Positions 4,974 through 26,282 of a stretch of 33,552 bases of DNA are shown here, piece after piece; position 1 is the stretch's first letter; every line of letters begins with the position of its first letter. A program made the translations under genes and the position numbers. The DNA comes from Raillietiella orientalis (lineage: Eukaryota): NCBI GenBank assembly GCA_036172245.1, contig JAYWIR010000124.1, positions 62,001 to 95,552 on the forward strand. The letters are read 5' to 3'. Under the pieces are notes generated by a model that was given only the letters and a program-made list of their open reading frames with translations, made no database searches and was not told the DNA's origin.

Positions 4974-5005
4974 TCAACTGATTAAGTTGTCGAACGCACA
5001 ATACT

Positions 5006-6504
5006 TTGAGCCGCGAAGCAAGTTCACCGACTCAGCAGGAGAGGAGCGATCTCCCGTCTGTCAAGAAGGTGACTCCGTTGACGCCTTTTAAAGGCGTAAG
5101 GAAAGCAACGATCCCAGAGAACGTTGCGAAAATCCCGGTGGTTTCCGCAACTACTGTAGCGGAAGCCTCTAAAAATCGCGAAGGCGAATGAAAGGTTGTG
5201 AAGAGCAGAGAAGAAATATCTCCAAAAAAGCTCCGCAACCTCCATCCCTGAGCTCTTCCAAAGGAAAAAGGAGTCGCGCGAATACGAAAACACGCGCGGC
5301 TTGTGCCTCTTCCCAGGAAGAAGCCAGCGCCTTTAACGCGTGCAAGTCCGCTTCTGTGACCGCCGAGAAGACCATTCCGGTGCAATCGGACGGATGCAAG
5401 CGCACGTCGATCGTGCGAGCATCAGACTCCGCAAAGGAGTTCCATAGCGTTGCTGAACGACGCGTTACTCACGCGGGAGCGAGTGCTTGCAGGGCTGAAG
5501 CCATGAAACGGACACACTCGCTGCAGAACGGCGAGTGCTCACCCCGGAACGCACAGGTTCTGCACCCGGGGAGGAGCACCCGATTACGTGCAGCACAGTT
5601 GAGGCCGGTGGCCACTGCGCCCTCCAGCCCGTCGTGCTGCTTACTGCCCGCTCGCCGGGTGAGGCGAGCACCACGGCCTCGCTTTCCCAGCCATGATGAG
5701 GGCAATCGCGTCTTCTCGTCGTGTTGCCGTGACGTCTTGGAACGTGAACGGGCTCCAACACAAGCAGAAGAGGCGACTAGTGGCTCACGCTTTGCGCGCC
5801 TTCGACTTGACGCTCCTGGAGGAGATTCACAGCATCTCCGAAGAGCAGGCTGCCGAAATCGAACGGCGCGCGGGCGAAACGCTACTTTATAGGTGCGACG
5901 TTGCACGTACGTGCGGCGTTGCTTTCCTCGTGCGAGGAACTTTGGCGGGAGCGGTGCGCTGCGTTCGTTTCGACACGGAAGGCCGAGTGGGACAGCTTGT
6001 ACTCAAGTGGTCCTACTCGATCGACCTTGTGGTAACCAACATGTACGCGCCGAGCGGTGCTGGACGATGAACCGAAAGGATTGAGTGCTTCGGTACCCTT
6101 CAAAGCCAGTGGTTCACTCGATTTCACCCTTCTGTGGCCCATCTCATTGCAGGGGACTTTAACGTCCACCTGCTTTCCAAGAATAGCTCCCACAAAAGGG
6201 AAAAGTTGCTAGCGGAAGTGATGTGCGCGTCCGTGGACGCGTGCAACTTGTTCGCTAGCTACCCTGTTATGGCAGCAACGCCAGAATACGTATACCTTGA
6301 TGAACACTTGCTCTCTCGAGTGAGTCGGAGAGGTCCCTTGCCGTCCCTGCTTTCACACCAAAACAGGCTCGAGTTCGAGTTGCCCCCGCCAGGCAAGGGG
6401 CCTCCAAACTCTTTTTGGAGGATGCCTGCAGACTGAATAAGCCACCCGGATGCGGTGGAGTATCTTCACCAGTACCTCCTCGGCTTTGTTATAAGTGTGC
6501 ACGA
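5006..6504 (+). mobile_element. Element D fragment: ORF1 C-terminal tail + APE endonuclease (decayed)
   Basis: 5693-6436 encodes SWNVNGL, LLEEIH, NMYAPS, HLIAGDFN and WRMPAD, preceded by a low-complexity ORF1-like tail. Cut at 6504 by the 3' end of element C. Confidence 0.82.
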
Positions 6505-6644
6505 TTCTCACCCGGTTGCGCCGGGCGTTTATTCTTGCGAATAACACGAGTTTCTGTGGCTAAACGGGTGGTTTAGCCAAATACAACTAAACTACAAGCT
6601 TGCCGGGTCACCGGCTCGCAGTCCGGTACGGGCCACCACGGCAG
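6505..6644 (-). other. Structured 3' end of element C (CTGCGA-loop stem, second hairpin, AATAAA, terminal hairpin)
   Basis: Minus strand: ACCGG-aCTGCGAg-CCGGT; TGGCTAAAC-caccc-GTTTAGCCA; AATAAA-CGCCCGG-cgcaa-CCGGGTG-AGAA. Confidence 0.7.
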
Positions 6645-8851
6645 CAGAAGGGGCTGTTACAAAACGAAAAGATATAAATAAAAATAAAAAAAAAAATAAA
6701 AACAACATCTGGTGGGCACGGGAAGGGATCACAGTCTGCTGCGGGGCCGTTCCATACTTTCTAGAATGCCGGCAAGCTGTATTTGGATTGATGTATCCAG
6801 ATGGGTCCATCCTGTCGCTGTCCTCATAAATTTGGCTGCGTACTGGACGGCACGCTTATCGTTTGGTCCTTGCGTCGCCTTGCTCCATGCCGCGATGATC
6901 CCGCGAAAGCAGCACATGGCTGCTAACGAGGCCGCTGGCTGAAGGGCGTTGCAGACGAAGGGGGACATAACTGCGTCTCTGGGGTTGCCACAGGGGTTAC
7001 CGATTACCGCGGCAAAACGGTTCCAAAGGAACCGAAGAGCAGCGCTATCCATAAGGAGGTGGAGAAGTGAGTTCCTTTCCCCACACCTCACACAATTAGG
7101 GTTCACCGCTCCTTAGTTCCAATGGTGCCGGTGGGCGATGCAAGGGAGTCCCCAATGCAGCAACAGTAACGCCGACTCCTGCCACTTTAAGGGGAGGGTG
7201 GAGGTGTTCATCTGCACTGGGGGCCACTTAAGTTGTTCCGTCGGAACGTTTAGCAGCTCGCCTCAGCGCGAAATTCTAATAGGAGTGGTAATCCGGGGTA
7301 GTATCACAAAGGATGCCCGTTTTCCATTCCCCGATCTTCTTCTCCGTACCGGAGATTCTAGCAAATACTTCCTATGCCACCGCAGTTTTGCTGTCCAGAT
7401 GGTCCACGAGGGAAAACAGCATTGCAGCGAGGAGATTTTCCTCGCCACACTCGTTTTTGGAAGTTCTTCAGGACCTCCCGGAGCGTGAGGCGGTCATTAA
7501 GGGCAAAGAAATGTCTCTGCCTTTCTTAAGTGCGTTGCTGGTTGCTCCTTGCCCACGCTTGAACAGTTTCCTGCAGCCATGCAGGTCCGTTAACAAGGCG
7601 ACAGCAGAGCCATCTTGCGTTCTTTTTCATCAGGTCAGCCACTCTCCGCAACTGCAATCCGCAGTGACCGACTTGGCGGCGTCGACGGAGCGCAAGGAAG
7701 GATAACAGTCCCACCTTGCCTGTAGCTTGTTCGACGAGGAGACGTGCGGGCTCGCACCAGCTGGTACTCCAATACTTCGTCACTAGGGCGATTAACCGAA
7801 ACTGGAGCTGGAGCTTTTAGCCGCTCCAGCGTCAGGAGGCCGAGACCGCCGTCCCGACGCGGAGCGCTCAAGTCCACAAGCCGGACTCGGGCCCTCCCAT
7901 TACCCCACAGGGTAATCCTTAGGAGGTCCTTCGTCCGCTTTTTAGTCTCTGTGGTGGGGACACAAACAAAAAGTAGGGAACGGAGGAGGGGGGCCGCGGA
8001 CGCGTTTCACACCGCGGCCCGTTCCGGTAGGAAAAACCTGCGTCCTTGGAACGGGCCGATTGCCGTCTCCACCTTCTGAAGGCAGCTGGACCACGCATCC
8101 GAAGAAAGATAATCCCTAATCGGTACAGCGAGCTACTTGGAGCACCGTACCGTGGGGATTCCCAAACGGACCCAGTCCGGTTGCCCTGCCCACGCCGCAC
8201 CGACTGGCATTACGGACGACTTCGTCTTTTTCACCTGAAGCCCGGTTGCCCGACTAAGCTGGTCGAAGAACTCCTCTACCGCCGGAGCCGGGATGCACAT
8301 GGGGAGCAGCAGCAAAAGGTCAACAGCGTATGCTGACACCGTAGGCGTGCCAAGACAGTCGCGTGGCAGGTGCGCTGGAGTTTCCCTGTATGCTCTTAGT
8401 ACCAACTCGAAATAGGTACTGAAGAGCAAGGAAATCAGGCTGTCTCCCTGCCGTATACCGCGTCGCAACGGTACGCCGTGCACGGTGTGTCCATTAAAAA
8501 AGATCTGGATGAGCGCGTCGTGCCAGCAGGATCGCAGGTAGGTCAGTAAAGTGACCAAGAAGCACATGCGTTCCAGGAGCTCCAGAAGGAGCCTCTGGTC
8601 GACACAGTCGAATGCTTTATGCAAATCGACTGCGACTGAGAGGGCTCCCTCCCCACCCCAACCATCCCGTTTCCTAGCGGAGGACATTCCGGAAGTCCGG
8701 TTGCACATCCTGACCCTTTCCTGTTGGAGGGCGAAAAAGGTGCTGGCGAGGAACAGGTTGGCATCCATGCTCCGCCCGGGAACAGCATATGTCTGCTCCG
8801 GGATAATGAAGCTTTCCGCTAATCGCACCAGGCGTTCAGCCCACAATTTCG

Positions 8852-8866
8852 CCAGCAACTTGGCGT
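8852..8866 (+). repeat. Left 15-bp target-site duplication of B1
   Basis: CCAGCAACTTGGCGT, identical to 16038-16052. Confidence 0.93.
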
Positions 8867-8869
8867 GCG

Positions 8870-8890
8870 GACGTGTTTTTGTAGCGCTCC
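8870..8890 (+). promoter_or_regulatory. Conserved 5'-terminal motif GACGTG-N9-CGCTCC (candidate internal promoter / start signal)
   Basis: Begins 3 nt after the TSD. The same motif occurs at 16636(+), 25014(-), 30764(-) and 31837(+). Confidence 0.6.
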
Positions 8891-8954
8891 TCCGCGCCTG
8901 GTGTAAAGCGTTTGGTTTCTTTTGTGTTTGTGTGTGAAGCATCTGCGGTGTCCA

Positions 8955-10949
8955 ATGGCAGAAATGCCTGAGGACACCGTGATGGATATAGGAGGGGGAG
9001 AGGCTTGCTCCTCTCCCCAACCCACGGAGGCGGGGGCAACCGCACCCCTGAAAAAAAGGGCAACCGCCGCCTCGGAAGAGAGGGCAAAGACCCCCTTGAA
9101 AAAGGGGGCAAAAGCCCCGCTGGAACAGGGTGCAACCGCACCCTTGAAAAAGGGGACAACCGCAACCCTGGAAAAGGGCGCAACCGCCTCCTTGAAAAAG
9201 GGGGCACCTGCACCCTCGAATGCGTCTTCGGCATCGCCGAAGACCTGGAGTTCAGTGCCTGCAGCCCCATCTTCTGCAGCCCTCGCCGAGCAGAAAGCCT
9301 ACCTGGAGCAGGGATACAAGGCGTCCCTGATATACAAGGAAGGCAATCTCTTTGTCGGGAACACCGCTCGCAACTTCGAAAGGGAGTTGCAGCGGTTGAA
9401 CGTAAAAGGGGAAGACCTGGAAGGTCTTTCCGTGTTGAGTGGTGGTCTGCGGGTGAAGCTGACTTGCAGAAATGCAAGCCTTGCTCAACACCTCCTGAAT
9501 ACGCCAATCACACTGGAAGGCCGAAAGATTTTCCCGGTAACGGAGGATCGCTCCGTGGTGACGCACCTCACGGGCGTCACCCTCCGCATGTCGAAAGCCG
9601 ACGTGCAGGAGGAACTCGGAAAATACGGAACGGTTCACGCGCTATGGCCCAAGCCCAACGTCTTCCAGAGTTACGGAAGACTGTTTAGTGGCATGGCTGG
9701 TGCGCGAGTAACCGTCCACGAAAACGGTGGGCTACCCCACAAACTAGACGTCGGCAACGAGACCGTCGAAGTCTGGTACGTGGGCACGCCCAAGTACTGT
9801 GGACACTGTGATGCCACAGGGCACCTGAAAAAGCGGTGCCCTCACATCCAGTCTTTCCACTGTGGAGAGAAGGGCCACCTCCGCAAAGTGTGCCCGAAGC
9901 GCGAACCCCCGAATCCCGCTGCCTTGAAAAAGGCCAAAGGGAAACGCGCGGAGGCTACGGAAAACCCTGCGAAGGCACCCGTGAGGCGGAACCCACAGGC
10001 GGAGCCCGAGCCCGTACAACAAACGCCGGTCGTGGAATCTACCGACGACGCTCAAAAGAGCGAAGGCTGGCAGAAGGCGAAGCCTAAAGCTAAGAAAGCA
10101 AAGAAAACCGAAGGATCGAAAGCGGAACCCGCGACGTCTTTTTTAAATAGGACACAACGCCGCGCGTTGATCCGCGAATGTTCGGTCGCTTTGGAGCGTG
10201 TGGAGGTACCCGAGACCGCCACCGGGGAAGATATCCCTCGCGTCGACGCTGACGATAACGCGATCACGGAAGGCGCACCCTCTGTGCAAACAGAGGGGGA
10301 ACCGCGCGACGCGCTCGCCGCGATCGACGAGGCCGCCTTCCAGCAGGCGGCGGAAGAGCTCGCGGCCGAACTCGCCGACCGTGAGAACGGCGCGCGAAAG
10401 GCCTTGCGAAGGCCGACCGCGACCAGGGCACCTCCGACAGGTGACCACGACCCGGATGCCGGAAGTGCGTCCTCTTCCACGGAGGCGCCTCCGAAGAAGA
10501 CTGGACGGAAGTGCAAGAATCCCAAGAGGCACATCCCGACGAAGAGCGAGGGGGACGCACCGACAGCCGAGGGGGAAGCCGGCAGCGTGGGAACGGAGGG
10601 AGGAATTTTCCCACCCTCCGCCACCGAGCAGCCGGCCACCCCCATGGAGGAGGGAGAGCAGGTAGGGCATTGCCTCCCCCTTCCACCGGTGGAGCCTGCG
10701 AAGATGGTCATGGAAGAGGGGGAGCAGACAGCTGAGAACCGCTCCCCCCTGCCGTCCATCGCAGTCGAGAAATCGGCCCCCATGGAAGAGGGGAAGCAGG
10801 TGCGTGAAGCATGCTCCCTTCAACCGTTGCAGTCCGCCGAGGAATCGGCCCCCATGGAGGTGGGATAACCGCTGGGCGGTGCCCCCATGCCTCCATCCGT
10901 CCCGCCCAACCAGGTGGCGGGAGCCCCATTGCCACTTTCCCAGGAGTAA
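8955..10949 (+). CDS. B1 ORF1 gag-like protein, two CCHC knuckles (second degenerate); open to TAA 10866-10868, ancestral stop probably 10947-10949
   Basis: ATG at 8955 aligns with the B2 ATG at 16721. CGHCDATGHLKKRC, SFHCGEKGHLRKVC. The downstream peptide PPSVPPNQVAGAPLPLSQE* aligns with B2 PPRVPPQQVADAASPFSQD*. Confidence 0.85.
9033..9218 (+). repeat. 24-bp (8-aa GATAPLKK-like) tandem repeat, about 7.5 copies
   Basis: GGGGCAACCGCACCCCTGAAAAAA and variants; not expanded in B2. Confidence 0.85.
10640..10865 (+). repeat. About 69-72-bp coding repeat (PMEEGEQ units x4) in the ORF1 tail
   Basis: TPMEEGEQ, MVMEEGEQ, APMEEGKQ, APMEVG; related units in B2 near 18355-18500. Confidence 0.75.
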
Positions 10950-13900
10950 CACCTGGGCTCGCCAGTCGCCGTCGATTAAGGGTGGCCTGCTGGAACGTGA
11001 ACGGGCTGCGCGACGACGGCAACAGACGGGACACGGCCGCCACCCTGCGTGACTTCGACCTGGCACTCCTGCAGGAGATCCACGTGATCACCGCGGAGAA
11101 TGCCCAGGACATAGAAAGGATCGCAGGGAGGCGGCTGGTTGTCACCCGGGTGCGCCGGGGCGTTTATTATAAACTATCCGGGAACAGGGTTCCTGGACAA
11201 AGGGGAAAACAAGAGACGAAGGGGGTGGGATCCCCGACACGCAGGTCGGTATGCCGAAAGTCCGGAACGGGAGGAAAGAGACCACAAACACACTACTATA
11301 TAAAAAAATTAGAGAAAAATATGGAGGGCAGGGGACAGGGGTCTTTGGTAAATCCGTTCCTTCCTTTAAAAACCGGCGATCGATGCCGGCGATCTCTCTC
11401 CTTACGCCCTGTGGCAGATGGGCCCACTGGGCAGCCGACGACATGTTTGCGCTGGCTAATCCGGTGGGCTGACGAAGGATGGCCAGCTTCTCCAACTCTC
11501 GGTGGGCCTTGTCGATGGCGCGGATGGAACACACGGTTGCAACGACAGCACCCAATGACAGGCCGCCTGGCTGGAGAAGCGGCGCATCAACTCCCTCGCG
11601 GTGTCCCCCTGGTGCAGGAGAGCTGAGGCTAGCCTCCGCCAGAGACCTAGAAGAACACCGCAGTCCAGGAGCAGGTGCGGGAGCGTTTCCAGGGCTGACA
11701 GTGCGTCTTCGAGGGGGGTGACGAACAGGCGGGTCCACTTCTCCTGGCTGTTGCACACCTCATCCACCGTGCAGTACGGGGAGAGGTGAGCGCAACGGAG
11801 TTCCAGGAGGGAAACATCCTGGTGCTTTGCCCAGCCATGCAACGGTTCCTGCCGCCAGGCTTGAAAGTTCGTTGGGCGGCAGGAGATCCATTCCTGGGCT
11901 TGCAGGAGCCGATACAATGGTTTCAAGGGGAAACCAAAGCTTCTCGTGGCGCGCTCCGTGTGCGGCCGCAGCGACAGAAGTCCATCGCTGCCTGTGCAGC
12001 GCCGCAGAAGCAGGCGCGCGGGAGCACACCACGGAGTGGACCAAAGGTTGGTGCACAGGGCCAACATCCGAAGCTGCACCTGCAGCTCGATTCTCTCCAG
12101 CGTCAGGATGCCTAAGCCAGCATCCCGACGCGGAGCCGCCAAGTCTTTGAGGCGGATCCTGGACCTCGCAGGTCCCCACAGAGCGTTCCTCAACAGGCTG
12201 TGCGCCTGGAGCTTGGCCGAGTAGGGGGGCGGGCAAACAAAAAGCAGGGGGCGCAAGAGAAGGGCAACGAAGGTGTTCCATATCGTGGCCCGCTCCGGCA
12301 GGACGAACCTGCCATGGTGGAACGGGCTCAGGGCATTCGAAGCCTTCCGAAGGCAGTCCGACCACACTTCCACTGAGCTGATGTTCCCCAGCGGAACGGA
12401 CGGTTGATGGGGCGGTTGGATGGGGGACGGTTAATGTGGCAATGCGGAACCCGATACATCTGCGGCGTCGCGTTTTTTATGAAGCCGGCAGTCGACGCAG
12501 CCGTGAAGGGCGTGCGCTTCGACGAAGCCGGTCGTGTCGGCCAGCTGATTCTCAGGTGGTCCGATACGTTCGACCTCGTCGTAACAAATGTGTACGCTCC
12601 GAGCGGTCCTACCAGGTACCAGGAACGTAAGGCGTTCCTGGAAACCCTGAAGCGCGACTGGCTGGTGGAAGCGAACGTGCGCGTGGCTCACCTGATAGCG
12701 GGAGACTTTAATCTCCGCCTGCTATCAGGTGAGCCACATGCACAGGAACGGACGGCTAACGAGTTGTGCACCGCCATGCGCACGCGCAACTTGTTAGGGG
12801 ATCTTTCGGAAATGGTCAGCAGCATCGACCACGTCTTCCTGGATGTCGACATGTGTTCACGGGTCGGCAAACGGGGGAAAGTTGCGTCAGAGCTGTCTGA
12901 CCATTCCCGGCTGATATTCGAGGTGTGCCCGCGCGACACGGGCCCCCCATCCAGGGCGTGGCGTCTGCCTGGGGACTGGACGCGACTCTCAGGTGCGAAG
13001 GAACACCTTCGCGAATTCCTGAGAGGCGTCACCCTCCGCAGTCTCAAAGATTGGGACCTCTTCAAGGCCTCGGTCCGCGAGTTCTGCGAGGAGTTCCCCC
13101 TGCACCGCCTGCCCCCCAGATTTGGGGAGAAGGCTCGGAACCATAGGGCCTATTTACAGGCCCGCCGGTACGAGAGGACCCCCAATGTCCGTCGCCTGGC
13201 AGAGTGCCGAGCCGGGGCCGAACGTCAAGCCTAGCAATGCAAATCGGCCAGCTTGCTGGACGACCAGGGCCGGGAGCACTCGGCTCCGGCTAGAATACGG
13301 CACCTCGTGCGGCGTTTTTATTCCTCCCTTTACGCCAGGGCGCCCCCGGACCAAGATGCCTCTCGGCGCTTGCTTCCAAACGGTGCCCCGGCAATAGGGG
13401 AGGAGGAGAAGGAAAGCCTCGACGAGCCTTTTACCACCGGCGAAATTCTCGCCGCTATCAAAAGGCTCAAGAGGCGGAAAGCATCAGGGGAGGACGGCCT
13501 GCCTGCGGAGTTTTTTCAATGCTTCGCGGCAGAGTTGGCACCCCTGGTGCTTGAGTTGACAAGGCTGATCCGAGATGAAGGCGATGTACCCGCCTCGTTT
13601 CGGTCAGCCAGAGTGATGCTCCTTCCGAAAGGAGGAGACCTCAGGAAACTCAGCAACTGGCGTCCGATCACAATTGTGAACATGGACGCCAAGTTGATCG
13701 CCGGACTGTGGGCTTCGCGTCTGGGGCAGGTGGCCAATTCCATAATTAGCCCGGAGCAGACCTACTCTGTTCCCGTGCGAAGTATGGAGGCCAACCTCTT
13801 CTTCGCGAGCACATGGTTTCATGTGCAGAGTAGTCAAGAAAAGGAAGAGGGAAGTTTTCTCAGCCACGCTTTGGGAGCGTCAGCCGAGCAGGGACAGGAC

Positions 13901-15831
13901 TCCCAGGTGGGGAAGGGAGCCCTAGCGATCGCAGTCGATCTGCACAAAGCGTTTGACTGCGTGGACCAGGATCTCCTGCTGGAGCTCCTGGGACGCAAGG
14001 GCTTCCCTCCCTCCCTACTGACCTACCTGCGCTCTTGCTTTCGCAGCGCGCTGATCAATATCTCTTTCAGAGTTCAAATGGCGTACGGCGTGCCGGTACG
14101 GCGGGGCATACGGCAGGGCGACAGCCTCAGTCCCCTGCTCTTTAGCACGTACTTTGAGTTGGTGCTGAGAGCGTACAGGGTGACTTTGGCCCCCTTGCCG
14201 AGATCGTGCCCCGGCACGCCCGCCGTAGCAGCATATGCCGACGATCTTTTGCTTCTGTTGCCGATGTCCACCCCGGCGATGGCGGTCGGGGATTTCTTCG
14301 ATCTGCTTAGCCGCGGGACCGGACTTACGGTGAACAGGGCGAAGTCGACGGTGGTACCAGTCGGTGCGGCGTGGGCTGGGCAGCAGGACTGGGTCCGCTT
14401 GGGAATCCCCACGGCGAGGTGCTTGAAGTACCTTGGTGTGCCGTTGGGGGACTACTCCCCTGCGGAAGCGTGGTCTGGCTGCCTCCAAAATGTGGAAACG
14501 GCGATCGGCCCGTTCTTGGAAGACAAGTTTCTCCTTCCGGAACGGGCCGCGGTATGGAACGCGTTCGCGGCTCCTATCCTCCGCCCCCTGCTTTTTGTTT
14601 GCCCCGTCCCCAGAGAGTTGAAAAAACGGACGAAGGACCTCCTGAGGATTGCCCTTTGGGGAAGAGGGAGGCTCCCAGTCCCGTTGAAGGACTTGTGTGC
14701 TCCACGTCGGGATGGCGGTCTCTGCCTCTTGACGATGGAGCGAGTAGAGATTCAGCTGCGGTGGCGAACCCTCGCCATCGCTGCGAAGTTATGGAGCACC
14801 CCTTGGTGCGTTCCGGCCCGACTCCTTGCCAGCCGTGTATCCGGAACGGAGGGTCTCGCGTCCTATCTTCTGTGCCGTGGCAGGAAGATCAAGAGATGCG
14901 GATTTCTCCTGGGACGCATGGAAACTCTGGCTAAGGAAAACGGCTGGATGGTATGCAGCCCCGCCAACTCCTCCGCATGGCTAGAGGAGACAGCTGGCAC
15001 GTGGGCGAAGATTAATGAAAAGAATCAAGAGATGTGGAACTGCCTGCGACGCGGCGCCTATTCCCGCTGCACTCTGCGGAAGATACTCCAGTGTCCCGCG
15101 AGAAGCACGTGGGCAGAGACAACCTCCCTAGCTACGGCGATGCCCTTCCTGAGGAGGGCGCTCTCCAGCAGCCGCAAGCCTAGGTGGCAAGTCTCCTGCC
15201 GCATCGCAGGCAAGGAGAAGTTGATCAGCGGCTGGTCCACGGGTGAACTGGCGGACGCCAGTACCCCCAGTGTCCAGCCAAGAGGACTTCAGAGATGGGG
15301 CGAGCTACTCGGCATACAGCCGGATGACCTGAAGTGGTTCCGGTATTAATTGGTTCTAGGATCCTCCCCCTGAAGTGGCAGGAGTTGGCGCTTCTGTTGT
15401 TGCATTGGGGTCTACCCTGCAACGCACGCCGCCACCACTGGACCAGGGGTCGAGTAGATCCTACCTGCATCAGGTGTGGGGAACGGGAAACTCTCCCCCA
15501 CCTCCTTGTTGATTGTGCTGCACTCAGACCCCTGTGGGAACGTCTTCATGCCTCCCTACGGATCCAGGAGGGCAGCCAGCCCAGATACGTTTTTCGGCTT
15601 CTGTTCGTGCATGATGCCCTGCGTCCAGCCGCTACCCTGGCTGCACTTTGCTGCGTACGCGGGATTGTGACGTGCTGGAGCAACGTCGGAAGACCGAGCC
15701 ACGACAGGGATGCCGTCGTACTTGCAGTCCGCTACCTGCGGATTGTGACCAGATGGCCCCAACTGGGAATTATACGGACGGACCTCGAGGGCATCCTGCG
15801 AAGGATGGACCCTCCTCCCAGTGGTCAGTGA
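10949..15831 (+). pseudogene. B1 ORF2 (APE-RT-Cys finger), split by J (11139-12397), with a TAG at 13232 and a frameshift near 15340
   Basis: ACWNVNGL..LLQEIH (10985-11085); NVYAPS, AGDFN, IDHVF, SDH (ORF 12404-13234); 698-aa RT ORF 13253-15349; CIRCGERETLPHLLVDC in ORF 15334-15831. Confidence 0.92.
11139..12397 (-). mobile_element. Element J: 5'-truncated LINE (post-RT region + 3' UTR) inserted antisense into the B1 endonuclease
   Basis: ORF 11456-12373 is homologous to the post-RT region (PERATIWN, APRRDAGLG, ETLPHLLLDC). Ends AATAAACGCCCCGGCGCACCCGGGTGACAA. Confidence 0.88.
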
Positions 15832-15907
15832 TCCCTTCCCAACCCTCCCAAATCTTTTTGTTTTTATGTTTTATTTTTCTTTTTGTTTTTTCCCTTACCC
15901 CCTTCCG

Positions 15908-16037
15908 CTGCCGAGGAGAGTCGCGCCGGTCTGCGTACCGGCGACCCGGCAGGTCCAGTTTAGTTCGCCGTAGTGGGGCCTCGTACCACGAATCAGAGAG
16001 AATTTTTAATGAACGCCCCGGCGTGACCGGGTGGCAA
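15908..16037 (+). other. Structured 3' end of B1
   Basis: CTGCCG..GCCGGT-ctgcgt-ACCGGC..CGGCAG; AGGTCC..GGGCCT; AATGAA then CGCCCCGG-cgtga-CCGGGTGGCAA directly followed by the TSD. Confidence 0.72.
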
Positions 16038-16052
16038 CCAGCAACTTGGCGT
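16038..16052 (+). repeat. Right 15-bp target-site duplication of B1
   Basis: CCAGCAACTTGGCGT, identical to 8852-8866. Confidence 0.93.
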
Positions 16053-16633
16053 CCGCGTTTATCACGGTAATCGGCCGCCAGTTGCTTATGCTCCAAAGGT
16101 CTCCTTGCTTAGGTAGGAGACGCACCTATGCCGATCGAAACGAGGCGGGGACGTCTCCCGTTTCGCGGATCAGCAAGGTGAGCTGATATACCAGGGGAGT
16201 AAGCTCTGCCGCGAAAGTTTGATAAAACTCCGCAGGCAAGCCGTCCTCCCATAGAGCCTTGCGCCTCTTGAGCTTTCTGATGGACGAGATGATCTCGCCC
16301 ATCGTGATAGGCTTGTCGAGGGCCCTCCTATCTTCCTCCCCGAAAGCCGGAGCGCCTTTCGGAAGAAGAAGTCACAAGACATCCCGTTCCAGTGAAGCGC
16401 GCGCTTACAGGGAGAAGTAGAATTTTCTTAATAAGCCTTTTACCTGTGCGTAGGCCGAGTGCTCCGAGCACTTGTACTCCAGCAATCTGGCCGAATCGGA
16501 TTGCCATGCCTGCCTCTCGGCTCCCGCGCGGTATTCTGCTAGCCTGCGAACGTCTCGAGTTCGCGAGTAACGTCGAGCTTGTAAATATGCTCTCTCGTTA
16601 CGGACGCCTCCTCCAAATCCCCTCTGTGGAGAG
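16053..16633 (-). mobile_element. Element C, upstream part: EN-RT linker and start of RT
   Basis: Minus strand reads RAYLQARRY..RRLAEYRAGAERQAW..EDGLPAEFYQ..SNWRPITVINAD and continues across the B1 TSD into 8866. Confidence 0.85.
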
Positions 16634-16720
16634 AGGACGTGCTTTTACTGCGCTCCGCCTGCGTGGCAAGGCGAGTGGTTTTTTGCTGAGTGGTTTGTGC
16701 GTGCACATCGTCGGTGTCCG

Positions 16721-18598
16721 ATGGCAAAGTTGCCAGACGACACCGCGATGGAAGTAGGCGTGGGGACGGCTTGTTCGTCCCCACAGCCTACTGGATCAGG
16801 GGCATCCGTCCCGGAATCATCCCCGACGACGCCCAGGTCATGGAGCCCAATGGTGGCCGCGCCTAGCGTGAAAGCCATGGCCGAGATGAGAGCCTACAAG
16901 AAAGCAAGGTATAAGCCCTCGCTAGTCTACAAGGTAGGCAACCTTTTCGATGGGCGAACTGAACGCGCCTTTACGAAGGCGCTGCAGAACGCCAATATCT
17001 TCGAAAAAGATCTTGACGGCCTCTCCGTCCTCAGCGGTGGGCAGCGGGTCGAGGTGGTATGCAAGGATATCACCTTGGTAGGACGCCTGATCACCGACCC
17101 GCTGATCGCTGATGGTCGGAAGATCTTGCCAGTCACGATGGACCGCTCGGTGGTGGTACATCTCACTGGGATCCCTAGTCGCATGACTAGGTCAGCGGTT
17201 CGTGATCAGTTGCAAAAGCACGCAGAAGTGCATGCGTTGTGGCAGAAGTCCACGATTTTACAAGGCTACAATAGCATTTCCGCAGGACAATTTGCGGCGC
17301 GTATCACCGTAAAAGAGGGTGGTGCGCTTCCCCACATGCTATAGGTCTGTCGAGAAGCGGTGGACCTGTGGCACGTGGAGAAACGCCAATTTAGCGGCTA
17401 CTGCAATGCAGTAGAGCATCTAGGAAAAAGGTGCCCCAACATTGTGTGCCACCTATGCAAGGAAAAGGGTCACGTTCGGCGCGTGTTCCCCAAGCGCCTC
17501 ACCCCAGAGCCTTCTGCCGCCAAAAAAACTCAGGGAAAACGTGGAAAGCTGGTAGAAGGACCAACTCGCGAAACTGGCCGTTCCCAACTGCCAGCCTACC
17601 TTCCTCCCGTACAGACGTCGGAAAAAAGAGCTCCCGTGAACGCGGAAATGGAGGAGGCTTGGCAGCTGGTTCAGGCCAGAAAAGAAAAAAAAAAGAAAGT
17701 GATGCCAGAAGAAAAGTCGGAGAAGAAAACTGCCGGCAACAAGAAAAAAGTCGCGCCGCTTTCAAAAAAAAAAAAACTCCGCCCATGCTCGGTGGCACTG
17801 GAGCGCTTAGCCGTTCCTGCCGAGGCCGCTTGCGGCAATGTTCAGCAAACAGCTAATGCGGACGCGATGAATACTCTCGTGGACGAGCCCATTCTACGTT
17901 TAGAGGGTGAGACGCGATACTCGCGCGCCGACAGCCAGGACGGCGCGCTCGATAATGTCGCGGAGGAGCCCGCGGCAACGTTCGCCGTCAGCGATAACGC
18001 CGCGTTCGATAAGGTCGCGGAGAAGCCCGCGGCAACGGTCGCCGCTGGCGAAGACGCGGTTTTCGAGAAAGCGGCGGAGGTGCTCGCAGCAGCGCTCGCC
18101 AAACGCGAAACCCCGTCGCGAAAGGGCATACGGAGGTCGCCTCCGACGAAGAAGGCCCCCGCAGGTGAGTGCGACCTGGGGGCCGGAAGCGCATCCTCCT
18201 CCTCGAAGGCACCCCCCAGGAAGTCGGGACGCAAGTCCCAGAAACCCAGGAGGCGCCTCCCCTCCACCAGCGAGGAGGAGATGCCGGAAGGAAGCGGCAG
18301 CGTTGGAATCCCGGATCGGGAACATCCACGTCCGGATGCAGTCAAGTCGGTCACCCCCATGGAGGAGGGTGAGCAGGGGGGTGAAGTCCTCCCTGCAGTC
18401 GCCAAACCTGAGTAGCCCGAACCCATCGAGGAGGGCGAACAGGTAGGAACGACTCCACCTGTGGGTGATCCGGCCGACGCGCCGGCACCGATGGAGGAGT
18501 AGAAAAAGGTGCCTACAGTACCTGTCCCCCCTCCCCCTCCACCAAGAGTCCCGCCCCAGCAGGTGGCGGACGCCGCATCGCCGTTTTCCCAGGACTAA
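16721..18598 (+). pseudogene. B2 ORF1 gag-like protein with nonsense codons
   Basis: Colinear with B1 ORF1; CHLCKEKGHVRRVF knuckle; internal TAGs at about 17342, 18413 and 18500; terminal TAA 18596-18598. Confidence 0.85.
17939..18100 (+). repeat. 57-bp (19-aa) coding triplication in B2 ORF1
   Basis: DGALDNVAEEPAATFAVS / DNAAFDKVAEKPAATVAAG / EDAVFEKAAEVLAAAL. Confidence 0.75.
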
Positions 18599-21500
18599 CA
18601 CCTGGGCTCGCCAGTCTCCGTCGGAATCGCGCGGCTCGTTGGAACGTCAACGGACTGCGCGACGACGTCATCTGGCGAGATACGGCCGACACTCTGCGTG
18701 AGCTCGACCTGGTGCTGCTGCAGGAGATCCACCTGATCACCGCGGCAGACGCCCAGCAGATCGAGACGATCGCAGGGGGTTGGTTGTATTGGCGATGCGG
18801 CCTCCGCAACACCTGCGGGGTAACGTTCTTCTTGAAGCCGGCCATCGACGCTGCCGTAAAGGGCGTGCGGCTTGATGACGACGGTCGGATCGGTCAGCTG
18901 ATTCTCAGCTGGTCCGACTCGATCGACCTAATCGTTACAAACGTGTATGGCCCCAGCGGCAAACAGGGGTACCGCGACCGCACCAGGCTGCTGGAATCCC
19001 CGAAGCGCGACTGCCTGGCGGATACCAATGTGCGAAAGGCTCAATTGATAGCAATAGATTTCAATCTCCGCCTGCTAACAGGTGAGGCTGAAACACAAGA
19101 GAACGCGATGAACGAGTTGTGCGCCGCCATGCGTGCGCGCAACTTGTTCGCGGGTGAGAGGGGAATGGTCCGCAGCATTGATTACGTCTTCCTCGACGCT
19201 GACCTGTGTTCACGGGTCGGCGAACGGGGGAGGGTTGCGTCGACGTTGTCGGATCATTCCCGGCTAATTTTCGAGATGCGGCCTCGCGACATAGGAACGC
19301 CATCAAGGGACTGGCGTCTCCCCGGGGACTGGATGCGCCTCTCAGGTGCAAAGGTGCACCTTCGCGCATACCTGAGAAGTGTCACGTTAAAAAATCTCCA
19401 GGACTGGGACCTTTTTAAGGATTCGTTTTGCGAGTTCCGCGAGGAGTTTGCGCTCGATCGCCTGCCCCCCGGATTTGGCGAGGGTCCTTGCAACCATCGG
19501 GCCTATTTACAGGCCCGTCGTTACGAGAGAGCACCTAATGTCCGTCGCTTGGCCGAGTACCGCGCATGGGCTGAACGCAAAGCCTGGCTATCCGGGTCGG
19601 CCAGCTTCCTGGACGACCAGTGCCGGGAATTTTCTCTTCCGGCGTCGGTACGGCATCTTGTGGGTAGATTTTATTCATCCCTCTACGCCAGGACGCCACC
19701 GGACCAAGATGCCTCTCGACGCTTGCTACCGGATGGTGTACCGTCAATAGGGGAAGAGGAGTCGGTAAGCCTCGACGAGCCTTTCACTACCGGGGAAATT
19801 CTTGCCGGTATCATAAGGCTCAAGAGGCGTGAGGCGCCAGGGAAGGACGGCTTGACCGCGAAGTGCTCTCAGTGCTTCGCGGAAGAGCATGCAGCCCTGC
19901 TGCTCGTGTTGACAAGGCTGATCCGAGACGAAGGCGATGTTCCCGCCCCGTTTCGGTCAGCCAGAGTGAGGCTCCTTCCAAAAGGGGGAGACCTCAGGAA
20001 ATTCCACAACTGGCGTCTGATCACCATCGTGAAGACGGACGCCAAGTTGCTAGCAGGACTATGGGCTTCGCGTTTGGGGCAGGTGGCAGAGTCCATAATC
20101 AGCCTGGAGCAGACCTATGCTGTTCCCGGGCGAAGTATGGACGACAACCTCTTCTTCGCAGGCACGCTAATGCAGCTGCAAAGGAGAGAGAAGAAAGGGA
20201 AAGGGAAAATCGGCAACCGCACATTGGGGCCGCTAGCGTGGCTGGGAAGGGACACCGGGGCGGGGAAGGGAGCCCTAGCGATCGCAGTCGATCTCCATAA
20301 GGCGTTCGAATGTGTAGACCATTAACTCCTCTTGGAGCTCCTGGGTCGCATGGGCTTCCCACCCACCTTGATTTTCTACCTGCGTTCTTGCTGGCGGAAC
20401 GCGAGAATTTCGATCTTTTTGAGCAGTCAAAAGGTGTATGGCCTGCCGGTGCGGCGGGGCATACGGCACGGAGATAGTCTCAGTCCCCTGCTCTTTAGCA
20501 CCTACTTTCAGTTGGTGCTGAGAGCGTACAGGGTGACTTTGGCCCCCTTGTCGAGCTCGTGCCCCGGCACGCCCGTCGTAAGTGTTTATGCCGACGATCT
20601 TCAGCTCCTGTTACCTATGTGCACCCCGACGAAGGCGGTCAGAGATTTCTTCGACCTACTCAGCCGCGGGACCTGACTGCAGGTGAACAGGGCGAAGTCG
20701 TCGGTGGTGCCTGTTGGTGCGGCGTGGGCAGGGCAGCAGGACTGGGTCCGTTTGGGGATCCCCACGGCGAGGTGCATCAAGTACCTTGGTGTGCCGTTGG
20801 GAGACTTCTCCCCTGTGGGAGCGTGGTCCAGCTGCCTCCAAAAAGTCGAGACGGCGATCGGCCCGTTTCTGGAAGGCAAGTTTCATTTGCCGGAACGGGC
20901 CACGGTTTGGAACGCCTTTGCGGCCTCCATCCTCCGCTCCTTGCTTTTTGTTTGCCCCGCGCCAGGAGTTGTTAAAAAGAGGAAGAAGGACCTCCTTTGC
21001 ATCGCCTTTTGGGGCGAGGGGAGGCCCCGAGTACCTTTGAAGTACCTATGCGCTCCTCGTCAAGACGGCGGACTTAGCCTCCTGACGCTGGAGCGCGTGG
21101 AGAAACAGCTGCGATGGCGTACCCTCGCCATCGTAGCGAAAATGTGGAGCACCCCGTGGTGCATTCCGGCTTGCATCCTTGCCAGTCGTGCGTCCCGATG
21201 CGAGGGACTTGCGTCTTTTCTTCTGTGCCCCGGCCGGAAGATCAGAAGATGCGGCCTACAGCTCGGGCGCATGGCATCGTTGGCCATGGAGAACAGCTGG
21301 ATGATTTGCTGCCCCGCCAACTCCGCCTGGCTGGAGGAGGACATCGGAACGTGAGCAGTGGTGAATCAGAAAAGCCACGTAACGTGGAATCGTCTCTGAT
21401 GCAGCCCCTACGCCCGCTGCACTCTGAGGAATCTCCTCGAGAATCCAGCTAGAAGCATGTTGGCAGAAACAACCTGCCTGGCTACGGCGCTGCCTTTCCT

Positions 21501-22191
21501 GAGGAGGACGCTTCACAGCAGTCGGACGTCAAGGTGGCAAGTCTCCTGCTGCATCGAGGGATGGGAGAAAAGAATGAGCGGCTGGACCATGGGTCAACTG
21601 GCGTACGCCACGACTCTGAGCGTCCAGCCGCGAGGACTAAGAAGATGGGGCGTGCTGCTGGCCATCCCTATGGATGTGCTGAAGTGGCTTCCGCTTCTTC
21701 AGGGATCCAGGATCCTGCCTCTTAAGTGGAAAGAGTCGGCGCTGCTGTTGTTGCATTGGGGTTTACCCTGCAACGCACGCCGTTCCCACTGGACAAGAGG
21801 AGTTGTGGATCCCTCGTGTGTCAGGTGCGGAGAGCAGGAATTGCTGTCTTACCTTCTTGTGGACTGTGCTGTTCTTGGTCACCTTTATGAACGGTTTGGG
21901 ACGACCCTCGGTCTCCCTACGGGCAGTTACCCTAGAGACCTTCTTCGGCCCCTCTTCGTGAAGGACGCTTTGCAGCCAGCCGCAGCCCTTGCAGCCTTGT
22001 GCTGCGTCCGAGGTATCGTGGCGGCATGGAGCGACACCAGCAAGGAAGGAGTGGGTCAACACGCGAGGGATGTCATCGCATATGCCCAACGCTTCTTGCG
22101 GAGAGCTGCTGGATGGCACCAGCTGGGGAACATACGGATGGACCTCGAGGGCTTCCTTCAACGGATGGGCCTTCCTTTCACCGAACAGTGA
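18598..22191 (+). pseudogene. B2 ORF2 (APE-RT-Cys finger) with nonsense codons
   Basis: RWNVNGL, LLQEIH, SDH, VDLHKAFECVD, HGDSLSPLLF, YADD, CVRCGEQELLSYLLVDC, TGA ending 22191. Confidence 0.9.
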
Positions 22192-22267
22192 TCCCTTCCC
22201 TGCTTTCTAACCTCTTTTGTTTGTTTGCTTTTTTATCTTTACTTTTGTTTTTTCCCATCCCCTTTCG

Positions 22268-22400
22268 CTGCCGGGGAGTTCCACGCCAGGCTGCGTCCCG
22301 GCGTCCCGGTAGGTCCCGTGCATGAGGCCGTGAGCGGGGCCTGGTACCGTGATTGTAGAGTTTTTTATCATTTAACGCTCCGGGAGTACCCGGGTGGCAA
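22268..22400 (+). other. Structured 3' end of B2
   Basis: CTGCCGGG..ACGCCaGG-ctgcgt-CCcGGCGT-CCCGGTAG; AGGTCCC..GGGGCCT; CCGGG-agta-CCCGG-GTGGCAA. Confidence 0.7.
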
Positions 22401-25017
22401 CGTCGAACCCCGCAGGCAACAGGTTCACAGGAAACTCTTCGCAAAACTCCCGGACCAAGCGCTTAAAGCGATACCAGTCCTGAAAAGTGTGCAAGCTGAA
22501 AGTTCGTATGAATCCGCGGAGATGTTCCGCGGCTCCGGGAAGTTTCAGCCAGTCCCCTGGTAAACGCCACGCAGTGGACGAGGGACCCCTGTCGCGTGGT
22601 CGGAACTACTGCACGATTTGGTCATGGTCCGACAGTTCCGACGGTAACTTGCTGCGCCTGCCCACGCGTGAGCAGAGGTGCTGGTCAAGAAACACGTGAT
22701 CTATGCTGTTGGCCATTCCCGGATCTCATGCGAACAAGTTGTGCGTGTGCATCTCTGCGCACAGCTCGTTAACGCGTTCCCGAAGTGTATCGGACGCACC
22801 TGAAAGCAGGCGAAGATTAAAGTCACCTGCGTTCAGGTGCGCTTTGCGCACTCTTGCTTCGTCCAGATATTCGCGCCTCAGGGTAAGGAAGAAATCTCTC
22901 CTTGCCTTAGCCTTTAGCGCGTCGCTGCCGCTTGGAGCGTACACGTTGGTAATGACCAGATCAATGAAGTCGGACCACCTGATGGTCAGCTGCCCGACGC
23001 GACCAGCACTATCGAACCGTACGCCCTTTGCCGCGGCCTCGACAGCTGGCCGAAGCAGGAACGCGACACCGCAAGTATTAACGGTGCCGGAACGCCACAG
23101 CAGCCGTCCACCCGAGATGCGCTCGATCTCCGTTGCTCGGTCTGCGGAGATCACGTGGAGCTCTTGCAGTAGCACCAGGTCCAACGATGCCAGGGTGGCG
23201 ACCACGTATCGCCTCTTGCCGTCATTGCTCAGCGCGTTGACGTTCCAACAGGCAATTCGCAGACGGCGGCAAGCGGCGATTCCCGACATTATGGCTGGGA
23301 ACGTGGCGTTGCAGCACCTGTCAACGGACGGGTGGGAGGGGTGAGTAAGGGGACCGCGGCCATCTCAGGCACTTGAAGCACCTGGGGCACAGATTTTACC
23401 CTTTCCTCCTCACCGAGTTCGCGGCGTAGGGTTACTTCTGGAGGCGACTCCCCGGAGTTCGCCACTTGGTTCGCACCCTCGCTTGCCTCGATTATTTCTC
23501 CCTTTTTTACGGAGGAGGTGATCTTCCGGCTAGCCTTCGTCATGCGACTTGGCTTCGAGAGGGGTACCGCGATGCCGCAGGCTAAGGTTTCCTTCTAGGC
23601 GGCACAGTTCCTATGCTCCGACTTGGAGATCGGACGCCTTAGGACCTTTTCCGATGCCTTGTAGGGACGTTGCAGGGACGCAGCGAGCTCGTCTGCCGCT
23701 TGTATAAAGGCGACGTCATCGAGCAGGCGTTCAGCGACGGACGCCACCGCCGGGTCGATAGCCTCCGGCAATGATTTGCCGGAGGGCTGAGATTCGGCAG
23801 CGACGAGTGCAACTTTGCCGTTCCGTTCGACCGCGGGAATGCGCTCGATGACGACGAAGAAGCGTTTTATTTTTTCGCGACGCGGCAAATTCTCGCTGCG
23901 TTTGGCGAAAATTTCTTTAGTTCGTTCCTTGAGGTTTTTCTGCCTCTTGGATTTCACTACCTGCCATCCAGGTTCCGGACCGTTCTCCTCGACCTTGAAC
24001 GCGTTTTCCGGGATCTCGGAGCTTACATTCACCTCGGGTACGATAGCTTCTTTAGTGGCGGTTCCCGCTCGCGCTGCTGAAACAATTAATTTTTTTTGCC
24101 GCGCGCTTCTTCGCATTACGTGCGGACGCGACGCGGACTTGATTTTGCTGGCACAACGAAAGAGTGTGCCCGGGTTGCTTGCATTGCTTGCACTGCAAGT
24201 GGGGGCACCTTTTTTTCAGGTGACCTGAAGTGCTGCAATGCCCGCAGAAATGCAGCTTAACAACATACCAGATGTCAACGGATTCGGCGTTGACCTCCAG
24301 CTTGTTTGGTAGGGAGCAACGCTCGCGGACCGTAATGCGCGCGGAAGCCATACCGCAATTCAGGAGATCGTACTCTCAAAACGGAGTCGGCCTTTTCCAC
24401 AACGCGTCGACGGTTCCAAATTTAACTAATTCCTTTCGGAAAGCCTCTTCGGCCATCCGGAAGGTGATTCCGAGGAGGTGGATCACGATAGATCTATCCT
24501 CCGTGATGGGGAGGAGCCGGCGATTTCCTAAAGGAACAGGTGTACGGAGCAGACGCTGGGCAAGACTTCCTTCTTTGCAAATCACTTCAACGTACTGTCC
24601 ACCGCTCCTGATGGTCATTGCCAAAAGCTCATTCTCAGGAACTTTCAGAGAGTTTCGCTTTTCATCGCTTTCTAGAAAGCGCGTGCACACTCAAAGTTAT
24701 AAAGGTTCCCTATCTTATAGAGAAGCGGGGGATTGTACCCCTCCTCCAGGTAGGCTTTTAAATCAGCCGCAGCCGCTTACGTTGGTGCCGCAGCCACGGA
24801 ACTCCAGCTTCTCCCTAGCGAGGGAGTCGCTTCTGTGGGGGCGGTTGCCCCCACATCCATTGATTCAGGAGGCGACATAGACGTCGCCCCCTCCTTAACA
24901 TTGGTGGTGGTCCGAGGAATTGCTGCCTAGCCACCACCGAATCCACTGACACACCAAGAAAAAAAAGAAAAAAAAGAAAACTACAAACGCTCAAGAGCGA
25001 AACAAAAACCCGTCCGC
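22401..25017 (-). mobile_element. Element E: 5' half (5' motif, ORF1 from ATG near 24878 to TAA 23289, APE 23289 to about 22401), decayed
   Basis: GCGGACGGG-TTTTTGTTT-CGCTCT start; CGHCSTSGHLKKRC/CKQCKQPGHTLSLC; IACWNVNAL, LLQELH, NVYAPS, AGDFN. Confidence 0.88.
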
Positions 25018-26282
25018 TCTCGCTCGAGGACTGGGACGATCTGAAAAGATCGGTCCGCGAGTTGTGCTGCCGGTTTCCCTTGCACCAGCTTCCGCGCGGC
25101 TTCGAAGAGGCAGTAGCCAACAGCAGAAATTTTCTGCAGGCCCGCTCCTTTTCCAGGCGCGCGGACGTTGGTCGATTATCCGAGTACAAGGCCAAGGCCG
25201 AGCGCCAGGTATGGCAGTCAGGGGCGACAGTTCTGCTCGACGACCATGACCGGGAATGCTCGGCTCCTGCCGACGTGCGACGGATAGTCAGGCGCTATTA
25301 CTCTTCTCTGTATGCAGAGGCACCGACGGAACGCAGCCTCTTCGGGCTGCTTCTGCCGATTGATGCACCTGTTGTAGACGAGGAGGAACGCGCGCGTCTT
25401 GATGAGCCCTTTACGGCAGAGGAAATTTCCTCGGCCATCTCGGGGCTCAAGAGACGAGAAGCGCTAGGCGAAGATGGACTCCCAGCGGAATTCTTCCTTT
25501 GTTTTGCGGCGGAGCTCATCCCCTTGGTACTCAGACTCTCGTCGCAGATTCAAGACACGGGCGATGTCCCCGCCTAGTTTCGCTCAGCGAAGGTGCGTCC
25601 ACTGCCGAAAGGCGCAGATTTGAGCCAACTGAACAACTGGCGTCCGATCACGTTAGTACAGGCGGACGTCAAGTTGTTCTCCGAACTTTGGGTGGCAAGG
25701 ATGTGTAGGATCGCGGAATCCTTGGTAAGTCCAAAGCAGACGTACGCTGTTCCTGGGCGGTCCATGGACGCGAATCTCTTGTTCATCCGCACATGGCTGC
25801 AATTGCGGCATCGTGTGGCAATGGATCGTCTTGCGGAAGCAACGCATTTGATCTCTTACCGACGAAGGCGCAAGACGCAAAGGGAGACGCCGGGAGCCTT
25901 GGCGGTTGCAGGCGATTTGCACAAAGCTTTCGATTGCGTGAACTAAAAGCTTCTTCTTGAGCTTGTGCAACGTCTGGGTCTTCCAACATCCCTGTTGACG
26001 TACTTGCGCTCCTGCTGGCTCCACGCGATTACATCCATTGTTTTCAGTGGTTGGCGCGTGTAAGGCTTGCCGGTACGACGAAGAATTTGGCAGGGTGATA
26101 GCTTAAGCCCGCTGATCTTCAGCATCTATTTTGAATTGGTACTGGAGGCTTACAGGCGAACGCTAGCCAACGCGCCGAGCTCCTGTACAGGTACGCCGGC
26201 CGTGGCAGCCTATGCCGACGACCTGCTTCTCCTGTTGCCCATGTCCACCTTGGCGACATCGCTTGAAGACTTCTTTGAGTTG
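25018..26282 (+). mobile_element. Element F fragment: EN-RT linker and RT up to YADD (decayed)
   Basis: EDGLPAEFF, NWRPITL, GDLHKAFDCV, QGDSLSPLIF, YADD; cut at 26282 by A2. Confidence 0.87.

Follow-up and report, generated by a model that had tools for sequence, protein, structure and literature searches.

Four nested L1-like LINEs of Raillietiella orientalis share a 3' UTR with two conserved hairpins, a candidate stringent-type recognition module

The stretch of DNA analysed here, 33,552 nt of Raillietiella orientalis contig JAYWIR010000124.1 (positions 62,001 to 95,552 of the forward strand; assembly GCA_036172245.1), is a nest of retrotransposons that lack long terminal repeats (non-LTR retrotransposons). 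We refer to this whole stretch as the window, and number all positions from its first letter. Four related L1-like long interspersed nuclear elements (LINEs), denoted B1, B2, C/D and J, are inserted in it one into another, as seen in a tblastn map made with pieces of the B1 protein and in alignments of the junctions. Their 3' untranslated regions (UTRs) are homologous. Each of the four independent insertions has an exact 3' end without an A-tail, and each carries an invariant loop on a stem that has changed in a compensatory manner, with an asymmetry between the strands. We propose, with moderate confidence, that the 3' UTR common to these copies serves as a stringent-type recognition and initiation module of one L1-like lineage, whose proteins combine an endonuclease of the apurinic/apyrimidinic (APE) type, a reverse transcriptase (RT) and a C-terminal CCHC domain.

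The order of the insertions can be read from the map. The full-length minus-strand element C/D (~25015 down to 6505) came first, inserting into an older plus-strand element, remnants of which are left at 5873-6493 and 25020-26282. C/D then received two plus-strand insertions, B1 (8870-16037) and B2 (~16636-22402), and the 5'-truncated minus-strand element J (~12410 down to 11139) went into B1. The initial annotation, which was made from the letters alone, had treated a copy "C" as an element in its own right. Its sequence was described correctly, but given the insertion order it is no separate truncated copy; it is the 3' part (8891 to 6505) of the full-length C/D, which is interrupted by B1 and B2. 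We keep the name C for this part. The elements and the first open reading frame (ORF) of B1 are as follows.

8870..16037, plus strand: LINE B1, full length, interrupted by J at ~11143-12410 (tblastn, Pfam, 18-nt duplication).
8922-10868, plus strand: ORF1 of B1 (tblastn map), followed by the endonuclease, the RT and the C-terminal CCHC domain, with the stop codon at 15829-15831.
16636..22402, plus strand: LINE B2, full length, decayed, with 4 stops in the RT reading.
6505..25015, minus strand: LINE C/D, the oldest full-length minus-strand element, split by the B1 and B2 insertions.
11139..12410, minus strand: LINE J, 5'-truncated, inside B1, with a decayed duplication of ~12-13 nt at 11130-11142 and 12411-12422.

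Target-site duplications of ~11-18 nt flank all four elements. That of B1 is clear (18 nt, CCAGCAACTTGGCGT(G/C)CG at 8852-8869 and 16038-16055), and those of B2, C/D and J are decayed yet recognisable, at ~11-17 nt. By tblastn, RT identity to B1 is 73% for the piece of B2, 64% for that of C and 44% for that of J. The UTRs compared below are homologous 3' UTRs of four diverged LINEs, as the initial annotation had taken them to be.

All four copies end in the same way. A terminal hairpin is present where the initial annotation had put it, with the loops CGTGA (B1), AGTA (B2), CGCAA (C) and CGCAC (J):

16014..16037, plus strand: B1 terminal hairpin, arms 16014-16021 and 16027-16033, loop CGUGA at 16022-16026, tail GCAA at 16034-16037.
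22376..22402, plus strand: B2 terminal hairpin, arms UCCGGG and CCCGGG, loop AGUA at 22385-22388, tail GCAAC(G).
6505..6534, minus strand: C terminal hairpin with AAUAAA, arms 6527-6521 and 6515-6509, loop CGCAA at 6520-6516, tail AGAA at 6508-6505.
11143..11167, minus strand: J terminal hairpin with AAUAAA, arms 11162-11155 and 11149-11143, loop CGCAC at 11154-11150.

In every copy the hairpin is followed by UG and then by (G/A)(C/G)AA, which reads GCAA in B1, GCAAC(G) in B2, AGAA in C and ACAA in J. The last four letters of J are equally attributable to the target, and since they also match it they can be taken as microhomology. The hairpin lies 6-8 nt from the element end in 4/4 copies, and the end itself falls 4-6 nt past the UG. 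At the junction with the duplicated target no copy (0/4) has a poly(A) or an A-run, nor do the four copies carry terminal short tandem repeats, their tails consisting of the unique UG(G/A)(C/G)AA(C).

The hexamer directly 5' of the terminal hairpin is AAUAAA in C and J, AAUGAA in B1 and UUUAAC in B2. One alternative is that the region is a signal for 3'-end formation or stability, in which the AAUAAA-like hexamer, the hairpin and cleavage at ...AA define the transcript end and the hairpin shields a tail-less or short-tailed RNA. The canonical hexamer of C and J, positioned ~20-25 nt before the end, would suit such a signal, as would the AAUGAA of B1 and the ending of all copies in ...AA or ...AAC. 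However, B2 departs from the hexamer, and no Rfam family, the histone 3' stem-loop included, matches. A processing signal alone would also leave unexplained both the lack of an A-tail in all four copies and an invariant loop ~70-80 nt further upstream, and we consider this explanation unlikely.

That upstream loop belongs to a stem-loop, SL1, which is enclosed by an outer helix, P1. From SL1 to the AACGC that opens the terminal hairpin there are 69-81 nt in the four copies. The four SL1 hairpins (4/4) agree in coordinates and letters with those first noted, which are given at the end of each line:

15907..15954, plus strand: B1 P1 (15907-15917 with 15944-15954) and SL1 (arms 15924-15930 and 15937-15943, loop CUGCGU at 15931-15936); first noted as GCCGGT-CTGCGT-ACCGGC, 15925-15942.
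22267..22314, plus strand: B2 P1 (22267-22277 with 22304-22314) and SL1 (arms 22284-22290 and 22297-22303, loop CUGCGU at 22291-22296), with one A.C mismatch; first noted as ACGCCAGG-CTGCGT-CCCGGCGT, 22283-22304.
6598..6645, minus strand: C P1 (6645-6635 with 6608-6598) and SL1 (arms 6628-6622 and 6615-6609, loop CUGCGA at 6621-6616), with A.G at the closing position; first noted as ACCGGA-CTGCGA-GCCGGT, 6627-6610.
11232..11251, minus strand: J SL1 (arms 11251-11245 and 11238-11232, loop CUGCGU at 11244-11239); first noted as CCGAC-CTGCGT-GTCGG, 11249-11234.

The CUGCG of the loop is invariant in all four copies, and it is carried, as the initial annotation had claimed, by stems that differ and still pair: three of the seven SL1 pairs show compensatory changes, and at the closing position the copies read U-A, G-C, C-G and A.G. 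P1 has 2 compensatory pairs among 10, and the structure conservation index of SL1 is 1.10. Judged from these alignments SL1 is probably real, with modest support on four sequences.

We asked how far this structure exceeds chance expectation. In a sequence-only MAFFT alignment of the UTRs, with a mean column identity of 69%, the longest invariant runs are CTGCG (the SL1 loop), AACGC and CCGGGTG (in the terminal hairpin). RNAalifold run on this alignment returned P1, SL1 and the terminal hairpin, comprising 24 pairs, 5 of them with compensatory change. Paired cells amount to 90.2%, compared with 84.9% in shuffled alignments (0/500 reach the observed value); the 5 pairs changed on both sides compare with a shuffled mean of 1.8 (2/500), and the covariation score of 0.274 with 0.189 (1/500). 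Controls in which the structure was slid along the alignment had 28-39% paired cells and 0-1 pairs changed on both sides. By column shuffling, z was -3.6 for SL1 (1/500), -3.1 for P1 and SL1 together (2/500), -3.7 for the terminal hairpin (1/500) and ~0 for the middle segment. G.U pairs make up 10 of the 96 non-kissing cells and become C.A mismatches on the opposite strand. The G.U pairs thus form only on the LINE sense strand, which points to the RNA of that strand.

A conserved hairpin in the middle segment, SL2, was also considered. Hairpins exist there in B2, C and J (z -2.1, -2.1 and -2.7) and not in B1 (z +1.07); because they do not align, SL2 is not claimed.

It is conceivable that none of this reflects a function, the similarity being simply inherited and the covariation and loop conservation being chance in a GC-rich, CCGG-rich sequence sampled four times. 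The B1 and B2 UTRs are ~70% identical, near the 71-77% of their coding DNA, single-sequence z-scores are weak, and alternative pairings abound because CCGG is self-complementary. Chance would nonetheless have to spare the middle of the UTR, which lacks alignable structure (z ~0), while giving -3.6 in SL1 and -3.7 in the terminal hairpin; it would have to produce 5 compensatory pairs where 1.8 are expected (2/500), and to place the 3' end identically in 4/4 copies. We hold this to be improbable, to the same degree as the processing signal.

Several observations nevertheless weigh against a recognition module. The sample is small (n=4), B1 and B2 are sisters, and the structure was derived from the same alignment that was used to test it. 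P1 is not kept in J in the RNAalifold alignment. When pieces of 50 nt were folded, SL1 was the minimum-energy fold in 1/4 (B1, which gave exactly P1 and SL1), B2 and C adopting other registers and J losing SL1; the z-scores of single folds of the whole UTR (+0.44, -1.00, -2.62 and -0.89) are unremarkable in 3/4. In the terminal hairpin 6 of the 7 pairs never vary and there is no covariation, so that its conservation could be a constraint on sequence rather than on structure. This hairpin is very probably functional, though possibly as sequence rather than as structure. Finally, no partner short interspersed nuclear element (SINE) with the same tail was seen in the 33.5-kb window, where nhmmer with the UTR profile found exactly the four LINE copies and none other above noise.

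The reading of the UTR as a stringent-type module was chosen because a shared exact 3' end after a hairpin, the lack of an A-tail, and SL1 with its invariant loop and compensating stems all match stringent tails. In stringent LINEs such as UnaL2 and ZfL2, the cognate ORF2 protein is described as binding a 3' stem-loop that is required for retrotransposition and whose loop gives specificity (PMC4176376; PMC1636434). In the mechanism that we infer, the element's own protein would bind the 3' UTR; the ORF2 protein (ORF2p) is the likeliest candidate, and ORF1p, which has a weak zinc-knuckle match, is a possible one. Such binding would select the element's own RNA and set the start of target-primed reverse transcription (TPRT). 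SL1, standing on P1 and displaying the invariant CUGCG loop, would act as the sequence-specific recognition determinant, and the terminal hairpin with UG(G/A)(C/G)AA would present the 3' end to the RT. Synthesis of complementary DNA would start within a few nucleotides of the hairpin, so that under this proposal no poly(A) would be copied.

The initial annotation had gone further, suggesting that the two loops kiss. The complementarity is as it was described: UGCG and CGCA match perfectly in C and J, with two wobbles in B1 and at 3/4 positions in B2. A kissing-loop pseudoknot would join both hairpins into one compact domain read by ORF2p, and could exist alongside the stringent-type module. 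Within the 113-122 nt that precede the terminal loop in C and J, only the SL1 loop offers it a Watson-Crick 4-mer match. Across the alignment, of 124 aligned 4-column windows, that of the SL1 loop pairs best with the columns of the terminal loop (15/16 cells, the next best having 12/16). Two of the three changes in loop 2, the terminal loop, preserve the pairing by wobble (transitions), and R2Tg offers a precedent in the pseudoknotted 3' UTR element described as bound by the LINE protein (PMC12222951).

Yet, although 15 of the 16 cells are paired, 12 of these by Watson-Crick pairs, none of the 4 pairs is compensatory. Loop 2 has changed at 3 of the 4 pairing columns and loop 1 never, contrary to what mutual constraint would produce. 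By our own arithmetic, ~1 Watson-Crick 4-mer match is expected by chance per ~120 nt, and it would fall in a 6-nt loop in ~2% of cases per sequence; the four sequences are effectively one ancestral observation. The partner in B2 is a 4-nt loop with one break, and a different stretch, CACG at position 93, is a better Watson-Crick partner for the terminal loop of B1. Moreover, among 303 window pairs, the invariant ACGC at the foot of the terminal hairpin (alignment columns 132-135) is as good a partner for the SL1 loop as the terminal loop is (15/16 cells, all Watson-Crick), and in the fold of B2 the GCGU of the SL1 loop is paired to ACGC in the 5' arm of that copy's own stem. The UGCG/CGCA complementarity is thus real but not specific, and a kissing loop seems to us rather unlikely.

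A broader scenario is about as doubtful: that a deep L1-like APE-type lineage swapped poly(A)-dependent priming for an R2-like, tertiary-folded 3' UTR, its hairpins locked together by UGCG/CGCA or by the SL1 loop and ACGC, and that ORF2p reads this fold and starts a few nucleotides from the RNA end. If true, an L1-type element would for the first time be seen to have a recognition element built on a kissing loop or pseudoknot; in the literature searched for kissing loops or pseudoknots in LINE 3' UTRs, only R2 pseudoknots and no kissing loops were found.

Self-cleavage had also been suggested. Ribozymes are described in other LINEs, HDV-like (hepatitis delta virus-like) at the 5' end of L1Tc (PMC3185411) and as twister variants in Schistosoma non-LTR elements (PMC8501958), and here a ribozyme would free the 3' end of the LINE RNA. 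No family of Rfam 15, self-cleaving ribozymes and the histone 3' stem-loop among them, reached its gathering score anywhere in the window. At E-values of up to 5, positions 6400-22500 gave 15 matches, none in a UTR and none to a ribozyme; they were microRNA-like or other noise in coding regions. What is conserved amounts to two simple hairpins, in which no catalytic core can be recognised, and a self-cleaving ribozyme is very improbable, far more so than any of the alternatives above. Of the template-recognition reading first put forward, then, the stringent type fits, given the missing poly(A) and ends 4-6 nt after the UG past a conserved hairpin, while the kissing loop and self-cleavage are not supported.

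A near-palindromic hairpin at 12683-12737 in the endonuclease coding sequence of B1 matches mir-3926 on both strands below threshold (35.7 and 35.2 bits, with a gathering score of 82), most likely by chance.

To see what kind of LINE carries this 3' UTR we turned to the proteins. Of 14 long ORF translations scanned against Pfam, 7 matched a family. In B1, the RT matches RVT_1 (1.9e-21, 13253-15349) and the endonuclease matches Exo_endo_phos, of the APE type (1.4e-05, 12404-13234); zf-RVT scores 23.4 bits in 15334-15831, below its cut-off of 27.5. ORF1 has a weak zf-CCHC match only (16.9 bits, below the cut-off of 20.8). RVT_1 also matches on the minus strand, at 8133-9020 (8.8e-10). The translation of the ORF2 C-terminus contains the motif C-x2-C-x7-H-x4-C. 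The layout is therefore that of an APE endonuclease, an RT and a C-terminal Cys/His motif in ORF2, together with a separate ORF1.

The best solved relatives of the RT are human L1 ORF2p entries (1.6e-39 to 1.3e-38), R2 proteins matching at 5e-16 or weaker (10 distinct sequences, E up to 0.01). Among ~5.8 billion proteins there is a single close relative, P0001, with 66% identity; all others are at most 30% identical (23 of the 24 matches in the main search, and 29/29 among longer proteins). The named relatives come from frog, fish, bee, green algae and plants, the plant ones having zf-RVT. L1-type proteins of frog, fish and plants are 23-30% identical, those of plants 23-25%. Classed by its best solved relative and its named relatives, the lineage appears to be L1-like.

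Searches for further copies gave no confirmed locus. An alignment of the C-terminal domain had 27 pattern matches in viral contigs and 337 in metagenome contigs, and an RT alignment (B1 and P0001) had 465 in metagenome contigs, with 0 confirmed loci in each case. A DNA pattern composed of the SL1 loop and its flanks, AACGC and CCGGGTG had 0 matches in viral contigs. It had 18 matches in genome contigs, all of them bacterial and mostly actinobacterial; because these have no LINE protein or UTR similarity, we ascribe them to chance.

A sequencing run (X1) contains 13% of the sampled words, and 545 of its contigs align to the window at a likeness of at least 80%, 375 of them being less than 90% alike; this alignment skipped 6661-6711 and 15853-15900 as repeats, and its best-supported rows have no entry in the UTR columns. 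One of the contigs matches 16002-16033 and then runs on in sequence like that at 19054, a weak hint of another copy ending at the hairpin. Another joins 11128 to 12456 with 31 other letters between, which weakly hints at a B1-like copy without J.

Other features of the nest were noted in passing. Just past the stop codon, each UTR opens with a T-rich or pyrimidine-rich tract of ~50-60 nt, which aligns poorly between families:

15850-15905, plus strand: pyrimidine tract of B1.
22210-22265, plus strand: pyrimidine tract of B2.
6715-6655, minus strand: pyrimidine tract of C.
11320-11285, minus strand: pyrimidine tract of J.

At the other end of the elements, B1, B2 and C/D have a common 5' terminus, GGACG(T/G)G(T/C)TTTT..GCGCTCC (8870-8900, 16636-16665 and, on the minus strand, 25015-24990), an indication of a defined start of transcription or of a 5' cis element. 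The 5' end of B2, GGACGTGCTTTT, is similar to that of B1, and ~8 extra letters lie between the target duplication of B2 and this conserved start. In the targets of B1 and J, CCAGC directly follows the element end (16038-16045; 11130-11142 / 12411-12422), that is, at 2 of the 4 junctions only. Together with the match of J's ACAA to its target (11139-11142), this is a hint of microhomology priming or of an endonuclease target preference.

Both ORF1s contain in-frame tandem repeats, six overlapping family members with 24-nt spacing in B1 (9032-9230) and three 57-nt units in B2 (17926-18096). A second, distant LINE family has copies at 298-5000 (minus strand) and 26283-~29420 (plus strand), which are 88% alike over 2817 nt and have an RT 26-27% identical to that of B1. 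Its 3' end is A/T-rich (...ATTTACCCCA(C/T)CCCTT) and has neither the CUGCG stem-loop nor the CCGGGTG hairpin. A 52-nt palindrome at 33379-33430, within a LINE-derived region, consists of perfectly matching inverted arms of 25 nt set 2 nt apart, and is possibly a foldback or an inversion junction.

Elements of this kind are already known, including in the L1 clade. New here are the specific motifs, their two-part arrangement, and the occurrence, in a host lineage that has hardly been sampled, of an L1-like element with neither poly(A) nor a terminal repeat. If the stringent-type reading is true, this is an L1-like LINE that chooses its template by structure and copies no poly(A), and it would provide a data point on the question of Okada and Ohshima, whether stringent 3' recognition is ancestral to the relaxed mode, in which mammalian L1 depends on poly(A). 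For experiments, too, it would be handy to have a small, defined 3' element that steers an L1-type RT to its template. For now the practical value is modest: such elements are known, and the evidence consists of four copies.

The closest parallel in form is found in the L2 clade. Eel UnaL2 and zebrafish ZfL2-1 and ZfL2-2 likewise have a stem-loop near the 3' end, in which the loop is kept while the stems may change (PMC4176376; PMC1636434). The L2-clade elements have one stem-loop and are described as ending in short tandem repeats such as TGTAA (PMC3747384), whereas the elements described here end in 6-8 unique nucleotides with no repeat, have a second conserved stem-loop ~70-80 nt upstream, and encode an L1-like RT.

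Within the L1 clade itself, the premise of the initial annotation that such elements typically rely on poly(A) holds for mammalian L1 but is too broad, because a stringent-type 3' hairpin has already been described in L1-clade LINEs of maize, and an L1/SINE pair with a common 3' end in Chlamydomonas. The maize LINE1-1_ZM lineage is reported to have a 3' hairpin with compensatory stems, a conserved loop UCU and the conserved flank CGAG, and Chlamydomonas L1-1_CR to share its 3' end with a SINE (PMC3472496, PMC3747384). These plant and green-algal elements resemble ours in combining an L1-type RT with a conserved hairpin at the 3' end (PMC3472496, PMC3747384). In the same accounts, the Chlamydomonas L1-1_CR/SINE pair and most plant L1-clade LINEs end in poly(A) repeats, and the maize and algal lineages share their 3' end with SINEs (PMC3472496, PMC3747384), whereas the present copies lack poly(A) and the window showed no SINE partner. 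The motifs are also others (the CUGCG loop and the CCCGG/CCGGG hairpin), and identity to plant L1-type proteins is 23-25%.

R2 elements use a restriction-like endonuclease. They are site-specific in ribosomal DNA, whereas the LINEs described here have varied insertion sites and an APE-type endonuclease, any pseudoknot in them is hypothetical, and R2 proteins match their RT far more weakly than L1 ORF2p does. R2Bm and R2Tg share with them a multi-helix 3' UTR element that ends a few nucleotides before the 3' end of the template, and the R2Tg protein is described as binding a small pseudoknotted element of this kind to start TPRT (PMC12222951).

Mammalian L1, which provides the closest solved relative of the RT (1.6e-39), resembles these elements in its layout of ORF1 and ORF2, its APE endonuclease and C-terminal Cys/His motif, in making target-site duplications and in being frequently 5'-truncated. 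As described, this relaxed type depends on poly(A) and needs no specific 3' sequence (PMC4176376); the elements of this nest, in contrast, do without poly(A) and keep a conserved, structured 3' end.

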